A stretch of DNA of 14,195 nucleotides from a virus. Of the stretch, positions 8,443-14,195 are shown in pieces. A program made the position numbers and the translations under genes. Where the stretch lies: the UHGV virus genome UHGV-1730239; one strand, written 5' to 3'. The notes under the pieces are model-generated. The model saw only the letters and a list, made by a program, of their open reading frames with translations, searched no databases and was not told the origin of the DNA. Each line of letters opens with the position of its first letter. Positions within the stretch are counted from its first letter, which is position 1.

Positions 8443-10446
8443 ATGCTTAAATTTCGCCGCGATCTTAACGGTTACGGTGGAGTTATTAATGAAGGGCATA
8501 ACGATCAATACGAATTTGAAATTGCTTTCTCAAGTACACAGCCTTATCAGCGCCAATTTTGGGATGAGCAAAATCAAGAAATGGTGGTATTAGATGAAAT
8601 TCTGGTACATACACCGGAAGCGGTTGATCTGTCTCGTCTGAATAATAACGCTCCGTTGCTGTTCAATCACAATTTCGATAATCACATTGGTGTAGTTTGT
8701 AACGCTCGAATCGATGCGGATAACGTAGGTCGTGCTCTGGTTAAGTTCTCCAAGCATGGGACTTTGGCTAATGATATTCGTAATAAAGTCATTGAAGGTA
8801 CGATGGAAAAAATTTCGGTCGGCTATGACATTAAAGAGTATCACATCGACTACGCTAAATCGCAACTCATTGTTTCTAAATGGATTCCTCACGAGATTTC
8901 ATGGGTGTCGGTGCCCGCAGACGATACGGTCGGTTTAAATCGCTCTCTAAATACTATCACAGTTAATTTGGAGGCTAAACGCGATATGACTAAAGAACAA
9001 ATCGAAGAAATCAAAGAAGAACAAGAACCCGCTCAGGTTGAAGAAACTCCGGTAGAAGAAAATAAAGAATCGGAAGTAGAAGAAACTCAAGAGCGCCAAG
9101 TTGAAGAGAATGAAGAAAATGAAAATCTCGAAGACGGAAAAGACGCTGAACATCCTGAAAGTGTTGATGATGATAGTTCAACTGTTCGGGAAGCAGAAGA
9201 AGTAAAAGAAGAACGTGAAGCCGCGCCGGTTGAAGAAGAAAAAATCGAAGAAGTGGCTGAACGTTCCGAAGAAGACGAATTAGAAATTCGCGAGATCGCT
9301 CGCGAGCTAAATATTAACGACGAAGAATTAGAACGCGCATTGGCAGTTAAAGACATGACGCCGGAAGCATTCCGCACTAAGGCACTAAATAATCTCGTCA
9401 ATTCTCAACGTAATAACGAACAACAAATTAAGGACTCTAAAATGGAAAAAACTTTTGACCTGAATGCTGTATTTCGCTCTCTGATCGATGGTGACACTCT
9501 GGGTGCTCATGAAGCTGAATATTCCGCGATGGCTGCTACTGCAACTGTACAGCGCGGTCGTGCTGCTCGTAGTGGCTCTGTATTCGTTCCGGCTGCTGCT
9601 CTGCGTGCTGCTGCTGCTGGTAACACTAAAGCTACTCTGGAAGCTGTAACTGATGAAAAACTGCTGACTGAATCCTATGTAGAAATGCTGATGCCTCAGT
9701 CCGTTCTGGGTCGTCTGGGTGTGACTGTCCTGTCTGGCCTGAATAGCCCGATCGCAGTACCAAAAATGACATCTTCTTGTGTTGACGGTTTCGGTTTCGT
9801 TTCGGAGAACGGCGAGGCACCAGAAAATAAAGCAGGTTTCGCAAACGTGAAAATGGCTCCTAAGACTTTCGCAGGGGGCAACCCAATTTCGCGCCTCAGC
9901 CTCAAAACCGTTCCGGGTATCGCAACCCTGATCACTGATCACATGAACAAAGCTGTTCGCATCAAACTGGAACAACTGGTGCTGTCTGATAAAGAAAACG
10001 CTAACGGTCCGAAAGGTCTGATTAAACATCTGGTTGATGCAAGCCGTGTTGAAAAGAAAGCTGCTTTCACCTACAAAGACTTCCTGAAAGAAATCGCAGC
10101 ACTGACTGATGCTGGCGTTCCGGCACAGTCCATCAAATTTGCCATGAGCGGTGCAACTGCTGCTGAACTGGAATCTACCCTGAAAGATAACGGCGTTTCC
10201 GGTTATATCATCGAAAACGGCAAACTGGCTGGTTACGACGTAGTTACTTCTGGTGTTATTCCGGCTGGCCACATCGTTCTGGGTGACTTCTCCGCGATTA
10301 CTATCGGTGAGTGGGGCGGTCTTGAGGTAGATCTGGACGATTCAACCTACCGAGCACAGGGCGCTATCGTTCCGCGTATCTGGGTAGACCTGGACTTCAC
10401 CGTAGTTCAGCCGGAAGCTCTGAAAGTTCTTCATATCTCTGAATGA
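8443..10446 (+). CDS. Single-ORF fusion of prohead protease (HK97 gp4-like), acidic scaffold-like linker and HK97-fold major capsid protein, 667 aa
   Basis: ATG at 8443 with AAAGGTGA upstream. N-terminal ~170 aa carry prohead-protease motifs (LLFNHN..HIGVV, ISVGYD, ISWVSVPADD). Residues ~180-330 are an E/D/K-rich predicted coiled coil. The C-terminal ~335 aa look like an HK97-type capsid protein ending in ...VQPEALKVLHISE. Single TGA stop. Confidence 0.85.
   Translation: MLKFRRDLNGYGGVINEGHNDQYEFEIAFSSTQPYQRQFWDEQNQEMVVLDEILVHTPEAVDLSRLNNNAPLLFNHNFDNHIGVVCNARIDADNVGRALVKFSKHGTLANDIRNKVIEGTMEKISVGYDIKEYHIDYAKSQLIVSKWIPHEISWVSVPADDTVGLNRSLNTITVNLEAKRDMTKEQIEEIKEEQEPAQVEETPVEENKESEVEETQERQVEENEENENLEDGKDAEHPESVDDDSSTVREAEEVKEEREAAPVEEEKIEEVAERSEEDELEIREIARELNINDEELERALAVKDMTPEAFRTKALNNLVNSQRNNEQQIKDSKMEKTFDLNAVFRSLIDGDTLGAHEAEYSAMAATATVQRGRAARSGSVFVPAAALRAAAAGNTKATLEAVTDEKLLTESYVEMLMPQSVLGRLGVTVLSGLNSPIAVPKMTSSCVDGFGFVSENGEAPENKAGFANVKMAPKTFAGGNPISRLSLKTVPGIATLITDHMNKAVRIKLEQLVLSDKENANGPKGLIKHLVDASRVEKKAAFTYKDFLKEIAALTDAGVPAQSIKFAMSGATAAELESTLKDNGVSGYIIENGKLAGYDVVTSGVIPAGHIVLGDFSAITIGEWGGLEVDLDDSTYRAQGAIVPRIWVDLDFTVVQPEALKVLHISE
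9442..10446 (+). CDS. Candidate nested product: major capsid protein alone, from an internal in-frame start (334 aa)
   Basis: In-frame ATG at 9442 with AAGGA 7 nt upstream; from here codon usage switches by eye to the highly-expressed style (ctg, cgt, ggt, gct, tcc). A second in-frame ATG at 8986 has GGAGG 11 nt upstream. Confidence 0.4.
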   Translation: MEKTFDLNAVFRSLIDGDTLGAHEAEYSAMAATATVQRGRAARSGSVFVPAAALRAAAAGNTKATLEAVTDEKLLTESYVEMLMPQSVLGRLGVTVLSGLNSPIAVPKMTSSCVDGFGFVSENGEAPENKAGFANVKMAPKTFAGGNPISRLSLKTVPGIATLITDHMNKAVRIKLEQLVLSDKENANGPKGLIKHLVDASRVEKKAAFTYKDFLKEIAALTDAGVPAQSIKFAMSGATAAELESTLKDNGVSGYIIENGKLAGYDVVTSGVIPAGHIVLGDFSAITIGEWGGLEVDLDDSTYRAQGAIVPRIWVDLDFTVVQPEALKVLHISE

Positions 10447-10575
10447 ACTAACGTAGAACCTTCTGTTCCTTCCCCCGATTTGGGGGAAGAAAATCTGATT
10501 CCTGAACCGGAAGAAGATTCCCAGACGGTTACGGCGAAAGCCACAGTTAAAAAACAACGTAAAACTAAAGAATAA
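10447..10575 (+). other. 42-codon in-frame extension beyond the capsid UGA stop (candidate read-through product), ending TAA-TAA
   Basis: After TGA (10444-10446) the same frame stays open for 42 sense codons (TNVEPSVPSPDLGEENLIPEPEEDSQTVTAKATVKKQRKTKE) to tandem TAA-TAA (10573-10578). An 8-bp hairpin CTTCCCCC-GATTT-GGGGGAAG sits at 10469-10489. Confidence 0.35.
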
Positions 10576-10580
10576 TAATT

Positions 10581-10608
10581 AGCCCTGCCTTAACGGTGGG
10601 GCTTTTTT
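10581..10608 (+). terminator. Rho-independent terminator after the capsid gene and its extension
   Basis: ~9-bp stem (AGCCCTGCC / GGTGGGGCT, two G-U pairs) with 5-nt loop, then TTTTTT (10603-10608). Confidence 0.75.
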
Positions 10609-10638
10609 GTATGTAAATACTCCATAAAGGGGGTAACT

Positions 10639-10929
10639 ATGTTCAAATTATCAGAATCACAATTATCAAGAATGTTTAAAAGTGCTCCTGTATTTTCGGT
10701 GGAAGGTGGTAAATCAATTCGTGCTTACCATGAATTTACTACTACCGACGAACAAGGGGTAATTACAGAATCAGAATTTCTATTCTGTCGTGAGGGAGAC
10801 TTAAATCAGGGTGATGTTGTCATTGTAGACGGTGAACGCTTCAAAGTTCAATACGTTAAGCGCAATGGTGATAATACTTCTGATTGCTTTATTGCTCGTG
10901 CGGGGGGTACACATGCTCGCTACCGTTAA
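10639..10929 (+). CDS. Small virion protein, putative head completion/head-tail connector, 96 aa
   Basis: ATG at 10639 with AAAGGGGG upstream; first gene after the capsid terminator. Function inferred from position only. Confidence 0.5.
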   Translation: MFKLSESQLSRMFKSAPVFSVEGGKSIRAYHEFTTTDEQGVITESEFLFCREGDLNQGDVVIVDGERFKVQYVKRNGDNTSDCFIARAGGTHARYR

Positions 10930-11335
10930 TAACATGCCGAGACTGAAAATCAAACGCGCCTTGCAAGATATTATTGAACAAGATTTAGGTCTGGCTTTAA
11001 ACGTAGAACAAACTCAGCAAGGCTTTAGTGATGATGTGGTTTGTTGGATTATTGGCATGAATGAAACTTACACTAGGGTCCGTGGCGGTAATGCAATGCA
11101 AGCTGAATGTGTTATCGAAATGCAGTTGTATTCTCAGAATCATGAAACCAAAATTCATGAGGGTATTTGCCAGATAATCCAGATTCAGCCGGATAATCCA
11201 CGTTTTAAAGATTTGGGCTTCTCTATTTCAGATATCACTCCAGTAGCTTCTAATACCGATTATGACGATGATTCTAGTGATGGGGGTATCGTTGGGACAC
11301 TTAGCCTTAAATTTTCTTATCTAGCGCGTTTTTAA
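10913..11335 (+). CDS. Small virion protein, putative neck/tail-joining, ~140 aa
   Basis: The listed ORF begins at GTG 10832 inside the previous gene; the first SD-preceded start is ATG 10913 (GGGGGG 5 nt upstream), overlapping the upstream gene by 17 nt. Another in-frame ATG at 10934 lies 4 nt past the upstream stop. Acidic C-terminus. Confidence 0.5.
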   Translation: MLATVNNMPRLKIKRALQDIIEQDLGLALNVEQTQQGFSDDVVCWIIGMNETYTRVRGGNAMQAECVIEMQLYSQNHETKIHEGICQIIQIQPDNPRFKDLGFSISDITPVASNTDYDDDSSDGGIVGTLSLKFSYLARF

Positions 11336-11344
11336 GGGGTAATA

Positions 11345-12181
11345 ATGAATATTACACAAGATAACTTAGACATTTTCACGGGGTCGCATGTTGAATTATC
11401 CATTTCTACGAATATTGATGCTGAACCTAGTTTTTTCGATCCGTCATTCTCTACTGTAGAGAATCTGGCGTCGTTTCCTACCATCTCGTTTAGCAATGAG
11501 ATTGAGACATTGGAAGAATATAATTCTGATGTTACGGCAAAATTACGCGGTGGACGCAAGATCGAAAATACAAACTTGAGTCTCTATCGTGTCATTAACG
11601 ATGAACATCAAGAGCTATTAAATCAGGCTGTACTAAGCAAGCAATTGCTCCGCTTCCGAGTGTTTTATGTGATCGATACTGACCAGAATACAAGCGGTCA
11701 GACGGGCTATTATGTTTTGTATGATGCCTATGTCACTAGCGCCAAAACAAAGGGAAGTGATACCAGCGCGGTTACTGTTGAGTATCGATTAGAACCGGAA
11801 GGAAGTGTGTTGTTAGACGGGATCGCAACTCAAGGGCGCGTCTTGCGGGAGGGTGACTTCGGTATCGGTGCTGGCGTTGGTGTTTTCCCTGGTGTTATTG
11901 ATAGCGAATCTCTATCTGGAAACCGCTTCGTAACGTATAAGGGAACAGTTAGTTCCAACCCGTTCGGTGCTGACACTACAATGATCAGCCTACAGCCTAA
12001 TGAAGATGGTGGATGGCAATTAACTAGCTCGGTAACTGGCAATCCTCGTTTGCGTGTCCGCACTATCCAAAAAGATGGTGCTACCGGATGGTTTAAAGTT
12101 TACACATCGGCTGAAAAACCAACCGCCGCAGATGTTGGGGCAGTGTCGCTAACTGCACGCGTGGACTTTGGCGAGTATTAA
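11345..12181 (+). CDS. Virion structural protein, putative tail tube/adaptor, 278 aa
   Basis: ATG at 11345 with AAGGGG upstream; Gly-rich segment GDFGIGAGVGVFPGV; lies between the small connector-like genes and the tail fibre. No family recognised. Confidence 0.5.
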   Translation: MNITQDNLDIFTGSHVELSISTNIDAEPSFFDPSFSTVENLASFPTISFSNEIETLEEYNSDVTAKLRGGRKIENTNLSLYRVINDEHQELLNQAVLSKQLLRFRVFYVIDTDQNTSGQTGYYVLYDAYVTSAKTKGSDTSAVTVEYRLEPEGSVLLDGIATQGRVLREGDFGIGAGVGVFPGVIDSESLSGNRFVTYKGTVSSNPFGADTTMISLQPNEDGGWQLTSSVTGNPRLRVRTIQKDGATGWFKVYTSAEKPTAADVGAVSLTARVDFGEY

Positions 12182-12209
12182 GGGTGAACCCTAAATAAAA
12201 CATGACGCG

Positions 12210-12240
12210 GGGAGGTTATGCCTCCCTTATTCCTGTTTTA
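12210..12240 (+). terminator. Weak terminator/attenuator hairpin between the 278-aa gene and the tail fibre gene
   Basis: GGGAGG-TTATG-CCTCCC (12210-12226) followed by the U-rich TTATTCCTGTTTTA; the stem also sequesters an SD-like GGGAGG. Confidence 0.35.
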
Positions 12241-12254
12241 TATGAGGTGAATAA

Positions 12255-14195
12255 ATGCAAAGTCTACAGCACAAACGATCCGGTGTTGCTGGTAAAAAAC
12301 CGACGCCGGAACAATTACAGGTCGGTGAATTAGCAATAAACTTAGTCGACCATGTAATTTACACTAAAGATAAAAGCAATGCGGTAGTGCAAATCAGTGT
12401 TTCCCCAGAAAGTCATAATACTTTAAACAAAAAAGTAGACACCAACAAGACGAACACCGATAAAGTTATTGTCGCAAATAAAAAAGAAGCTGCTAATAAT
12501 CTGGCTACCGCTAAAACTGAATTAACTAACACTATCAACACCAAAGACGCCGCAATCAATAAACGTGCTGATGGTATCAATACCGCTGTTTTGAATCTAC
12601 AGAAGATGGTAGCGGCAAATAAAACTGATGCAGATAACAAGATTACTTCTTTAACATCGACTGTCACCGCAAACAACACAGCGATCAATAAAAAAGTTGA
12701 TGCAAACAAGATGCAAGCCGACAAAGAGATCACCCGCTTAGATGGTCGTATCGATGATGCTGTTTTCCGTGGTGAATTGCCAACTGATGCAAATTTAGAT
12801 ACATATGGTCCACTTCCTGAATTTGTCGGTGTATGGGGCAAATCAACGTCTACTAACGCAACTCCGGCTTATAGTTTCCCGGAAGATGGCGCGGTTGGTA
12901 TTCTTGAAGTTTTCTCCGCTGGTAACTTTGCGGCAACTCAGCGTTATACGACGCGCTACGGTAATATTTTTGTTCGTAACCTTTCCGCTAAATGGAATGG
13001 CTCTAATGGTCCGTGGACGCCGTGGCGTAATATTCAGATGGGTACTCGTCCGCTTTCGACGTCAATTAATCTTAATGATTTTGGCGGTGTTGAGCATTTT
13101 GGCTTATGGCGAAACGGGTCTACATCAATTGCGTCGTTAGATCGAAACTTCCCAGAAGCAGGGGCAGACGGTCGAGGATTGTTAGAAGTTTTTGAAGGTG
13201 GTAGTTATTCCCGTATGCAGCGTTACACAACCATTAACGGTCGTGTGTATATTCGTACTCTCGCCGCTTCGTGGGATGCATCCGCGCCGAGATGGGAAGC
13301 GTGGAAAAAGGTTGGTCTTTTTACCCCGTCTGAAATTGGCACATACAATAAAGCGGAAATTGATAAGAAAATTTCTGATTTGGACAATGCGCTAGTATCT
13401 AAACCGATCCAGCCGTTACCGGACGTATGGATACCGTTTAATGATTCTCTGGATATGATCACAGGATTTGCGCCGGGATATAAAAAAATTACTGTTGGTG
13501 CGGATGTTGTCACTATGCCTAGTGACAAGATTGTTAGCTTTACTCGTGCATCAACCGCTACATATATTAATAAATCTGGTAGGCTTAGTGTCGCTGCAAT
13601 TGATGAACCACGATTTGAAAAAAATGGTTTATTGATTGAAGGCCAACGAACTAACTATTTTGTTAAATCTAACACCCCTGCCGAATGGACTAGCACAAGC
13701 AATATTGATAAAAGCAATAATGGCGTTGATGAATTTGGTTTTTCATTTGCAAAAATGAAAACTAAGGAAAATATGACGGGTCAATCATCCGCTCTTAGTT
13801 TGCATACATGCAGCGCATCCCGTGGTGTTGATGTTAGTGGTGATAATAAGTTTTGCACAGTTTCTTGTCGTGTTAAGGCTCCTGATGGCCTCCGTTGCCG
13901 TTTACGCTTTGAAAAATACGATGGATCGGTTTACACCTTTTTGGGTGATGCTTATTTGACTTTCGGTAGCACATTGACAATAGAAAAAACTGGTGGTGCT
14001 GCTAATCGTATTACGGCTAACGCTACTAAAGATCCGGTTACTGGTTGGATTTTTTACGAAGCGACGATAGAAGCGGTTGAAGGGGAAACCTTGATTGGTG
14101 CAATGATTCAGTATGCACCGAAAAAAGGCGGTGTAACCGAAGCAGGGGATTATATCTATCTTGCCACACCACAATTCGAAAATGGTAGTTGTGCG
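12255..14195 (+). CDS. Tail fibre protein, 3'-partial (at least 647 aa, continues past the window end)
   Basis: ATG at 12255 with GAGGTGA upstream; the frame is open to the last base and is absent from the ORF track only because no stop falls in the window. Contains an N/K/T/A-rich coiled-coil-like shaft (~12400-12760) and two ~48-aa repeats with motif LEVF...QRYTT..G..(F/Y)(V/I)R.L.A.W....W..W resembling the knob domain of pyocin/phage tail fibres. Confidence 0.75.
   Translation, partial: MQSLQHKRSGVAGKKPTPEQLQVGELAINLVDHVIYTKDKSNAVVQISVSPESHNTLNKKVDTNKTNTDKVIVANKKEAANNLATAKTELTNTINTKDAAINKRADGINTAVLNLQKMVAANKTDADNKITSLTSTVTANNTAINKKVDANKMQADKEITRLDGRIDDAVFRGELPTDANLDTYGPLPEFVGVWGKSTSTNATPAYSFPEDGAVGILEVFSAGNFAATQRYTTRYGNIFVRNLSAKWNGSNGPWTPWRNIQMGTRPLSTSINLNDFGGVEHFGLWRNGSTSIASLDRNFPEAGADGRGLLEVFEGGSYSRMQRYTTINGRVYIRTLAASWDASAPRWEAWKKVGLFTPSEIGTYNKAEIDKKISDLDNALVSKPIQPLPDVWIPFNDSLDMITGFAPGYKKITVGADVVTMPSDKIVSFTRASTATYINKSGRLSVAAIDEPRFEKNGLLIEGQRTNYFVKSNTPAEWTSTSNIDKSNNGVDEFGFSFAKMKTKENMTGQSSALSLHTCSASRGVDVSGDNKFCTVSCRVKAPDGLRCRLRFEKYDGSVYTFLGDAYLTFGSTLTIEKTGGAANRITANATKDPVTGWIFYEATIEAVEGETLIGAMIQYAPKKGGVTEAGDYIYLATPQFENGSCA

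Follow-up and report, generated by a model that had tools for sequence, protein, structure and literature searches.

We analyzed a stretch of 14,195 nucleotides (nt) from the viral genome UHGV-1730239, which we call the window throughout, and which has 100% identity to a prophage that Escherichia coli O6:H16 strain 2014EL-1346-6 carries in its chromosome. The capsid gene in this window ends in a lone UGA codon, and the same reading frame then stays open for another 42 codons, up to a double stop just before the transcription terminator. We think it likely that a small share of ribosomes inserts tryptophan at this UGA and continues, that the result is a minor, C-terminally extended capsid subunit, and that this low-level read-through is under selection. 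In a group of E. coli prophages, selection appears to maintain the arrangement of stop codon and tail, judging from the comparison of their sequences. The main elements are as follows.

8443..10443 (+), with the stop codon at 10444-10446: capsid gene, a 667-residue open reading frame (ORF) in which an S78 prohead protease, an acidic scaffold-like linker, and an HK97-fold major capsid domain are fused
10444..10449 (+): capsid stop UGA followed by ACU, which places an A at position +4; the hexanucleotide UGAACU is identical to the read-through site of the Q-beta coat gene
10447..10572 (+): 42-codon in-frame extension (the tail), with a proline-rich and acidic first half and a second half rich in lysine and arginine; it reads TNVEPSVPSPDLGEENLIPEPEEDSQTVTAKATVKKQRKTKE
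10573..10578 (+): tandem stop TAA-TAA that closes the extension
10581..10609 (+): intrinsic terminator, a 9-bp stem (10581-10603) and a T-run, beginning 2 nt past the double stop

Stop codon and in-frame tail

The evidence comes from 88 copies of this region in E. coli prophages and metagenomes: 33 IMG/VR prophage contigs that were found via the capsid protein, more contigs that were found via DNA patterns, and four E. coli chromosomes. These copies contain 30 distinct tail sequences and belong to two capsid lineages.

The stop codon of the capsid gene is unusual for its surroundings. Of the 12 genes in the window, 10 end in TAA, one ends in TAG, and the capsid gene alone ends in TGA; the portal gene, the Rha-family gene, and one more gene end in TAA-TAA. 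(An earlier note, made from the letters of the window, had pointed out the lone TGA and the double stops of the portal and Rha-family genes, and all of these are where it placed them.) The capsid gene is presumably the most highly expressed gene of the window, and bacterial genes with high expression favor UAA as their stop (PMC5289835). Among bacterial stops, UGA leaks the most. With an A behind it (UGA-A), it is the weakest termination signal in E. coli; according to the part of PMC5289835 that cites Engelberg-Kulka 1981, it is the context that is most misread by tRNA-Trp in E. coli. Read-through of UGA in a K-12 reporter is 2–4% (PMC10570021), and read-through at the Q-beta coat site, UGAACU, is 3–5% (PMC13517186; PMC7026636). 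The capsid stop is TGA with A at +4 in 88 of 88 copies, across 14 different flanking contexts and with any of GAA, GAC, GAG, or GAT as the last sense codon. Most of the relatives have UGAACU, and the rest have UGAAAU. None of the 88 copies has a sense codon (cysteine or any other) at the position of the UGA. Both of the relatives that lack an in-frame tail, a Salmonella prophage and phage DCP80 (see below), have a TAA stop. There is no suppressor tRNA in the window. As a side observation, the capsid stop overlaps an ATG (gaATGAACTAA; 10443-10451), which gives a mini-ORF of two codons (M N stop) in the -1 frame; because the ATG is missing in variants whose last codon is GAC, it is probably incidental.

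The 126 nt behind the stop are open in the capsid frame and are closed by TAA-TAA before the terminator (10447-10578), just as the earlier note had read them. That note suggested comparing related genomes, for conservation of the frame as well as for frameshifts or stops inside the segment. All 88 copies (30 distinct sequences) keep the TGA, frame 0, and the double stop, and none of the 30 variants has a frameshift or an in-frame stop inside the tail. Among the 30 distinct tails, frame 0 is open in every case, while frames 1 and 2 are open in none and close within 4 codons of the stop. The double stop (TAATAA or TGATAA) is present in 88 of 88 copies, always at the same distance from the terminator stem. 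Furthermore, the tail comes in six lengths (84, 99, 126, 129, 132, and 135 nt, or 28–45 codons), and every one of them is a multiple of three. These length classes require at least five insertion or deletion (indel) events, and the probability that all of them would keep the frame by chance is about (1/3)^5 = 0.004. When we used the 42-residue tail as a query against 5.8 billion predicted proteins, no protein contained it; in the sampled genomes, then, no sense codon ever takes the place of the UGA, and gene callers never predict the tail as an ORF.

The tail also has the codon usage of a gene, as the earlier note had suspected when it said that the segment reads like coding sequence. With a codon-usage model trained on the window's own genes, frame 0 of the tail scores +0.43 to +0.47 bits per codon, which is inside the range of real genes, as compared with about -0.6 and -1.1 for frames 1 and 2. 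This score exceeds those of all 10,355–13,480 off-frame or antisense windows of 42 codons. We repeated the training with the capsid gene left out and the score remained gene-like; the same is true for the short variant of the tail.

At the protein level, the class of residue is preserved. For example, the alleles AKKQRKTKE and AKRGRKPKE differ at 9 of 27 nt, including a change from AAA to CGA (lysine to arginine) and two synonymous changes, and yet all five basic positions and the frame are preserved. Under random substitution, this would have P of about 0.004, a figure that is indicative, as the pair was picked after inspection. The order of charges that the earlier note had described for the window, from acidic and proline-rich to strongly basic, is found in every variant, including the 28-codon tail, whose first half is largely different.

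The tail is evolving quickly. Its nucleotide diversity is 0.137, which is similar to that of the capsid gene (0.121), while the diversity of the adjacent terminator and intergenic region is 0.006. Because the tail changes fast beside a nearly frozen terminator, it is not simply a conserved non-coding element. Rapid change without loss of frame fits a loosely constrained, probably disordered peptide. Two alleles of the tail (KKVGRPPKAK and AKRGRKPKE) have what we take to be a resemblance to the core of the AT-hook, and by analogy it is possible that the tail binds nucleic acids or another polyanion.

The capsid gene, its relatives, and its neighbors

The 667-residue product of the capsid gene contains both a Peptidase S78 domain (PF04586, amino acids 40–162, 1.7e-9) and a Phage_capsid (HK97) domain (PF05065, amino acids 409–664, 1.3e-26) in one polypeptide, which identifies it as a protease-fused HK97 capsid protein. 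It also matches the major head protein of PHROG 617 (3.4e-88) and the capsid protein in PDB entry 8gta (3.3e-26). RefSeq labels it “phage major capsid protein” and has no annotation between its stop and the following gene, which starts at 10639. Between the protease and the capsid domain lies an extremely acidic, glutamate-rich linker of low complexity (about 130 residues; 8980-9300; EEIKEEQEPAQVEETPVEENKESEVEE...). The linker is strongly diverged between the two capsid lineages, and it is presumably a scaffold or delta-like domain that is removed at maturation.

A search of phage records for near-identical DNA gave no match; the sequences that do carry the element are E. coli chromosomes and IMG/VR prophage contigs. 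The two capsid lineages have just 40% identity to each other at the protein level and carry the same tail. (The second lineage is represented by loci L036, L037, L038, L043, L052, L054, L061, L072, L073, L079, and L083.) The tail and the downstream head-tail genes are about 95% identical in DNA sequence between the two lineages, and the boundary of this mosaic exchange falls in the last few codons of the capsid gene (10420-10446, approximately). Because the boundary is there, the UGA and the tail move together with the module behind them rather than with the capsid gene.

Two relatives do without an in-frame tail. In a prophage of Salmonella enterica (L095, AATSSX010000025.1, 1100-1180), the capsid protein ends in ...MKAPAGRSK and a TAA directly before the terminator, with neither a UGA nor a long tail. 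The other is Escherichia phage DCP80 (L034, PQ671644.1), the nearest match among phage records, which is a T4-like record of 141 kb with an HK97-type protease-capsid fusion gene (42% identity). In the relevant part of DCP80 (2503-2640), the capsid stop is TAA-ACC-TAA, and a 7-bp hairpin with a GCAA loop follows 7 nt later. Since there is a second in-frame TAA one codon after the stop, read-through is impossible in DCP80. This record also has an open +1 frame, with a basic peptide (...APVKKSKSASG) at its end, ahead of a terminator; this frame may be the equivalent of the tail, reached by frameshifting, or the record may be an assembly chimera.

Among more distant homologs of the capsid protein, most stop 8–15 residues past the DLD motif, and none has a homologous long tail. 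A few of them end in short tails rich in lysine, threonine, and alanine (ATVQATKK, KKGTVTK). These are suggestive only; within this capsid family, a basic C-terminus may be an older trait. We also scanned a genome collection with the capsid alignment, which found four relatives with 24–27% identity and another gene order (a capsid gene and then a protease gene); these were uninformative.

Elsewhere in the window there are genes for a lambda-type large terminase, a lambda-family portal, and a Rha-family regulator. The gene that follows the terminator marks the end of the capsid transcription unit:

10639..10929 (+): downstream gene for a head-tail attachment-like protein (weak match to PF05354), which is a protein-coding gene in RefSeq

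The sequence that leads up to it (10579-10638), which comprises the terminator, a spacer, and the ribosome-binding site of this next gene, is nearly invariant, with a diversity of 0.006 and 40 distinct sequences (L001-L094). The coding regions on either side vary 10–20 times more, and the rare changes in the stem or loop of the terminator preserve the hairpin. This 60-nt stretch may be under constraint beyond termination, for instance as a recombination junction or a regulatory site. In many relatives (L047, L059, L074, L077, L078, L084, L085, L088, L090, and L093), and not in the window itself, ARAGORN reports a 91-nt “tRNA-Glu(ttc)” or “tRNA-Gln(ttg)” about 500 nt after the terminator, antisense in the second gene past the capsid gene. 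Rfam finds no tRNA there, and these calls are most likely false positives. At the other end of the window, positions 1-1611 differ from the rest, which is densely coding: neither strand has an ORF of over 64 codons there, and there is no tRNA or Rfam match.

RNA structure and alternative explanations

The region behind the stop codon can fold into a branched RNA structure with the following parts.

10447..10456 (+): spacer from the UGA to the base of the structure, 10 nt, constant in length and variable in sequence
10457..10530 (+): branched structure, in which an outer stem (10457-10465 with 10522-10530) encloses hairpins 1 and 2
10469..10489 (+): hairpin 1, CUUCCCCC/GAUUU/GGGGGAAG, with 8 bp, 22 nt past the UGA (-14.4 kcal/mol, z -3.1)
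10499..10512 (+): hairpin 2, UUCC/GGAA, to which the window adds an AAUCU/AGAUU stem at 10492-10519

The earlier note had reported hairpin 1, and it was right about its length, its position, and its stability; this hairpin is just one part of a larger structure, however, whose base lies 10 nt from the stop. The branched structure (-30.4 kcal/mol, z -3.4) is also the consensus fold of 14 variants. The stem of hairpin 1 is invariant among the long variants, and the one substitution in this hairpin is a loop U that is C in the type of L037, while hairpin 2 retains a core of 4 bp despite differing loop sequences. The 33-codon variant (-23.3 kcal/mol, z -4.6) has lost hairpin 2 and retains the outer stem and hairpin 1. 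The 28-codon variant has a different, non-homologous hairpin (-13.8 kcal/mol, z -6.3), with 11 bp and the loop GAAA. The structure starts exactly 10 nt after the UGA in all three classes (long, 33-codon, and 28-codon), and the z-scores of the folds range from -3.4 to -6.5 across variants. Among the five distinct short variants, which is a small sample, all substitutions in the stem keep the pairing, and two of these are compensatory double changes; 98.9% of the cells in this stem are paired, as compared with 12–53% if the partners are slid. We consider RNA-level selection on this region to be real, as judged from these patterns of substitution and folding. In Rfam, no SECIS (selenocysteine insertion sequence) or other family matches the region up to E = 10, and none matches anywhere in the window at gathering thresholds.

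Such a structure might act on read-through. Eukaryotic viral read-through stimulators have a spacer of at least 8 nt and then a stable structure (PMC13517186), and by analogy with them, the structure 10 nt past the UGA may raise the level of read-through. The footprint of a terminating ribosome ends at about 10 nt, and the structure could equally be an mRNA-stabilizing element that sits just clear of the ribosome.

This raises the question of whether the 126 nt are translated at all. They might be a structured untranslated 3' region (a stabilizer, a processing signal, or a small RNA that is derived from the 3' end and ends at the terminator), with the open frame being a by-product of purine-rich composition and relatedness. 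This would account for the significant folding (z -3.5 and -4.8), for the compensatory changes in two stems and the invariant stem of hairpin 1, for the weak amino-acid constraint, and for the reverse-strand frames, which are mostly open too (see below). Also, 10 nt past the stop would be the first position that a terminating ribosome sets free. However, an untranslated region would not explain why at least five changes of length are all by multiples of three, why frame 0 is open and frames 1 and 2 are closed in 30 of 30 variants, why the codon usage is gene-like in frame 0 only, why basic residues are kept across 9 nt changes, or why the double stop is constant. Nor would it explain why TGA-A is found exclusively with the tail and TAA in the tail-less relatives. 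Furthermore, the tail is about 20 times more variable than the adjoining terminator, and it has no match in Rfam. We therefore consider a purely structural role to be improbable.

A second alternative accepts read-through and makes the peptide irrelevant: ribosomes that reach TAA-TAA would mask the terminator stem and thereby tune transcription into the head-tail genes. In all copies the double stop does abut the terminator stem, with constant spacing; the frame and its openness are conserved while the peptide is weakly constrained; and the terminator and the intergenic region that follows are almost invariant. Against this, just a few percent of the leading ribosomes would be affected, which is probably less than the normal leak of intrinsic terminators. 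Masking would have no need of conserved basic residues or of the acidic-then-basic pattern, and the Salmonella relative has no such device: every ribosome there stops 18 nt before the terminator. This explanation is very unlikely.

The remaining alternatives are weaker still. An in-frame UGA with a stable stem-loop behind it, and with G as the first base of the apical loop, is reminiscent of selenocysteine insertion, with SelB being recruited by the downstream hairpin as a bacterial SECIS, and E. coli has the selenocysteine machinery. In the SECIS elements of E. coli fdhF and fdnG, the stem-loop lies about 11 nt from the UGA, has a bulged U, and carries a G-U in its apical loop. The loops here (GAUUU and GAAA) do not have an adjacent G-U, there is no bulged U, hairpin 1 lies at 22 nt and not at 11 nt, the hairpins of two variants are unrelated to each other, no SECIS is matched in Rfam even at E = 10, and no relative has a cysteine or any sense codon in place of the UGA; we give selenocysteine almost no weight. 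Equally little speaks for the segment as an independent small gene, or as the decaying remnant of a longer capsid gene that was cut by a nonsense mutation: its mosaic boundary at the last capsid codons and its movement with the downstream module are like those of a separate gene, but there is no conserved ATG, GTG, or TTG start or ribosome-binding site (the sole in-frame TTG is inside hairpin 1, is TCG in the type of L037, and is absent from the short variant), it was never called as an ORF among the 5.8 billion predicted proteins, and a remnant would be expected to have acquired stops or frameshifts at a pS of 0.19, while none of the 30 variants has any. Finally, a frameshift origin of the type of T7 10B does not fit, as the extension is in frame 0 and the other two frames close within 4 codons in 30 of 30 variants.

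Several points weigh against selected read-through, which we still prefer. In a single sequence the open frame is not beyond chance, because about 6% of shuffles of the local sequence have at least 42 open codons; it becomes significant only through the comparison with relatives. Those relatives are related to each other and recombine, so the 88 copies represent far fewer independent observations. Similarly, because the two capsid lineages share the tail by mosaic exchange and not by deep vertical conservation, the sharing is not independent support. On the reverse strand, two frames are open in 28 and 20 of the 30 variants, and the purine-rich composition makes open frames fairly likely. The signature of protein-level selection is weak: the ratio of nonsynonymous to synonymous variation (pN/pS) of the tail is 0.71 in frame 0 versus 0.83 and 0.91 in the other frames, and the variable sites are distributed 14/20/18 across the three codon positions, with no excess at the third. 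Because this ratio (0.71) is a weak signal, the case rests on the frame, the indels, the codon usage, and the class of residue. RNA-level selection could explain part of the conservation. The Salmonella relative without a tail implies that the tail is accessory and dispensable for capsid assembly. Also, natural isolates of E. coli have a more efficient RF2 than that of K-12, so read-through may fall below 1%.

The proposed capsid subunit and known systems

We infer the following course of events from the sequences, from read-through itself, the insertion of tryptophan, and its level to the incorporation of the product into capsids and the stimulation by structure. Most ribosomes would terminate at UGA-A via RF2 and release the normal capsid protein. 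Probably 1–5% of ribosomes would instead take in Trp-tRNA(Trp) at this codon and go on for a further 42 codons (28–45 in relatives), until they reach TAA-TAA just before the terminator. The product would be the capsid protein plus tryptophan plus the 42-residue tail, which is about 4.7 kDa longer. Once the fused protease and scaffold are removed, the mature capsid would contain a handful of tailed subunits: about 4–20 per capsid, assuming a T=7 shell with about 415 subunits and a genome of about 35 kb. We assume that the C-termini of HK97-fold proteins face outward, as in T7 10B and in encapsulins. By this analogy, the tail is most likely on the exterior of the capsid, as a flexible, charged surface appendage.

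The closest known system is the read-through protein A1 of Q-beta, to which the earlier note had compared the window, and the likeness goes further than that note claimed, down to the same hexanucleotide, UGAACU. In both cases the host is E. coli, the stop is UGA, read-through by Trp-tRNA at a few percent is known or proposed, and a minority of coat or capsid subunits would receive a C-terminal extension. On the other hand, Q-beta is a small levivirus with a single-stranded RNA genome and an unrelated coat fold, and its extension of 196 amino acids is a folded domain that is needed for infectivity. Here we have a tailed prophage with about 35 kb of double-stranded DNA, an HK97-fold capsid, and a tail of 28–45 amino acids that is of low complexity and probably disordered, and that would arise by read-through. 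Also, unlike with A1, one relative does without the tail.

Tailed phages with double-stranded DNA are known to produce extended capsid proteins by a different route. Frameshifting extends the capsid proteins of T7 (10A/10B), T3, Lactobacillus phage A2, and Listeria phages A118 and A500 (-1 frameshifts), and of Listeria phage PSA (+1), and several of these genes have an RNA structure at the 3' end (PMC5009743). As proposed for the window, a single gene yields a short form as the major product and, by recoding at its end, a C-terminally extended form as the minor one. The difference is that those genes have a slippery site and an extension in the -1 or +1 frame, while in the window a stop codon precedes the extension, which is in frame 0. 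The known minor C-terminally extended capsid forms of tailed phages all arise by frameshifting, and the known cases of read-through of a coat stop are limited to RNA phages such as Q-beta.

As for the RNA, the order of stop codon, spacer, and stable structure is like that in the pseudoknot of MuLV and the stem-loops of alphaviruses and Colorado tick fever virus, where the spacer is about 8 nt or longer (here, 10 nt). Those eukaryotic viral stimulators act on eukaryotic ribosomes and were verified by mutagenesis; in the window, the structure may play such a role. To our knowledge, structure-stimulated read-through has not been established for bacterial ribosomes. The arrangement is also like a bacterial SECIS in having an in-frame UGA in E. 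coli and then a stem-loop, and unlike it in lacking the loop and bulge determinants and the spacing, in having an unrelated hairpin in the short variant, and in having no Rfam match.

We found no case of capsid read-through in a phage with double-stranded DNA, either in the reviews of recoding that we read, where Q-beta is the sole phage example of read-through, or in the open-access literature. Within that literature, a read-through tail on the capsid of a DNA phage, which is what the sequences suggest, seems not to have been described before. A more elaborate possibility, which we regard as doubtful, is that the structure 10 nt past the UGA is a bacterial read-through stimulator that sets the dose of a surface-exposed, fast-evolving, cassette-like charged tail, in which the AT-hook-like GRP core of some alleles could mediate adhesion or nucleic-acid binding. 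If so, the window would hold a prokaryotic counterpart of the retroviral and alphaviral elements, the first case in bacteria of read-through that is stimulated by RNA structure, and also the first in which a structural gene of a double-stranded DNA phage has programmed stop-codon read-through.

Annotation pipelines would miss products of this kind: the interval is blank in RefSeq, and the tail is in 0 of 5.8 billion predicted proteins. If our proposal is true, the prophage would offer a natural system, easy to engineer, in which to test if read-through on bacterial ribosomes is modulated by RNA structure behind the stop, and its tail would be a ready-made, low-copy display site on the capsid of a temperate coliphage. 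If confirmed, it would mean that the mechanism of Q-beta, with the same six nucleotides, operates in an HK97-type DNA phage that is present in about 1% of complete E. coli genomes.

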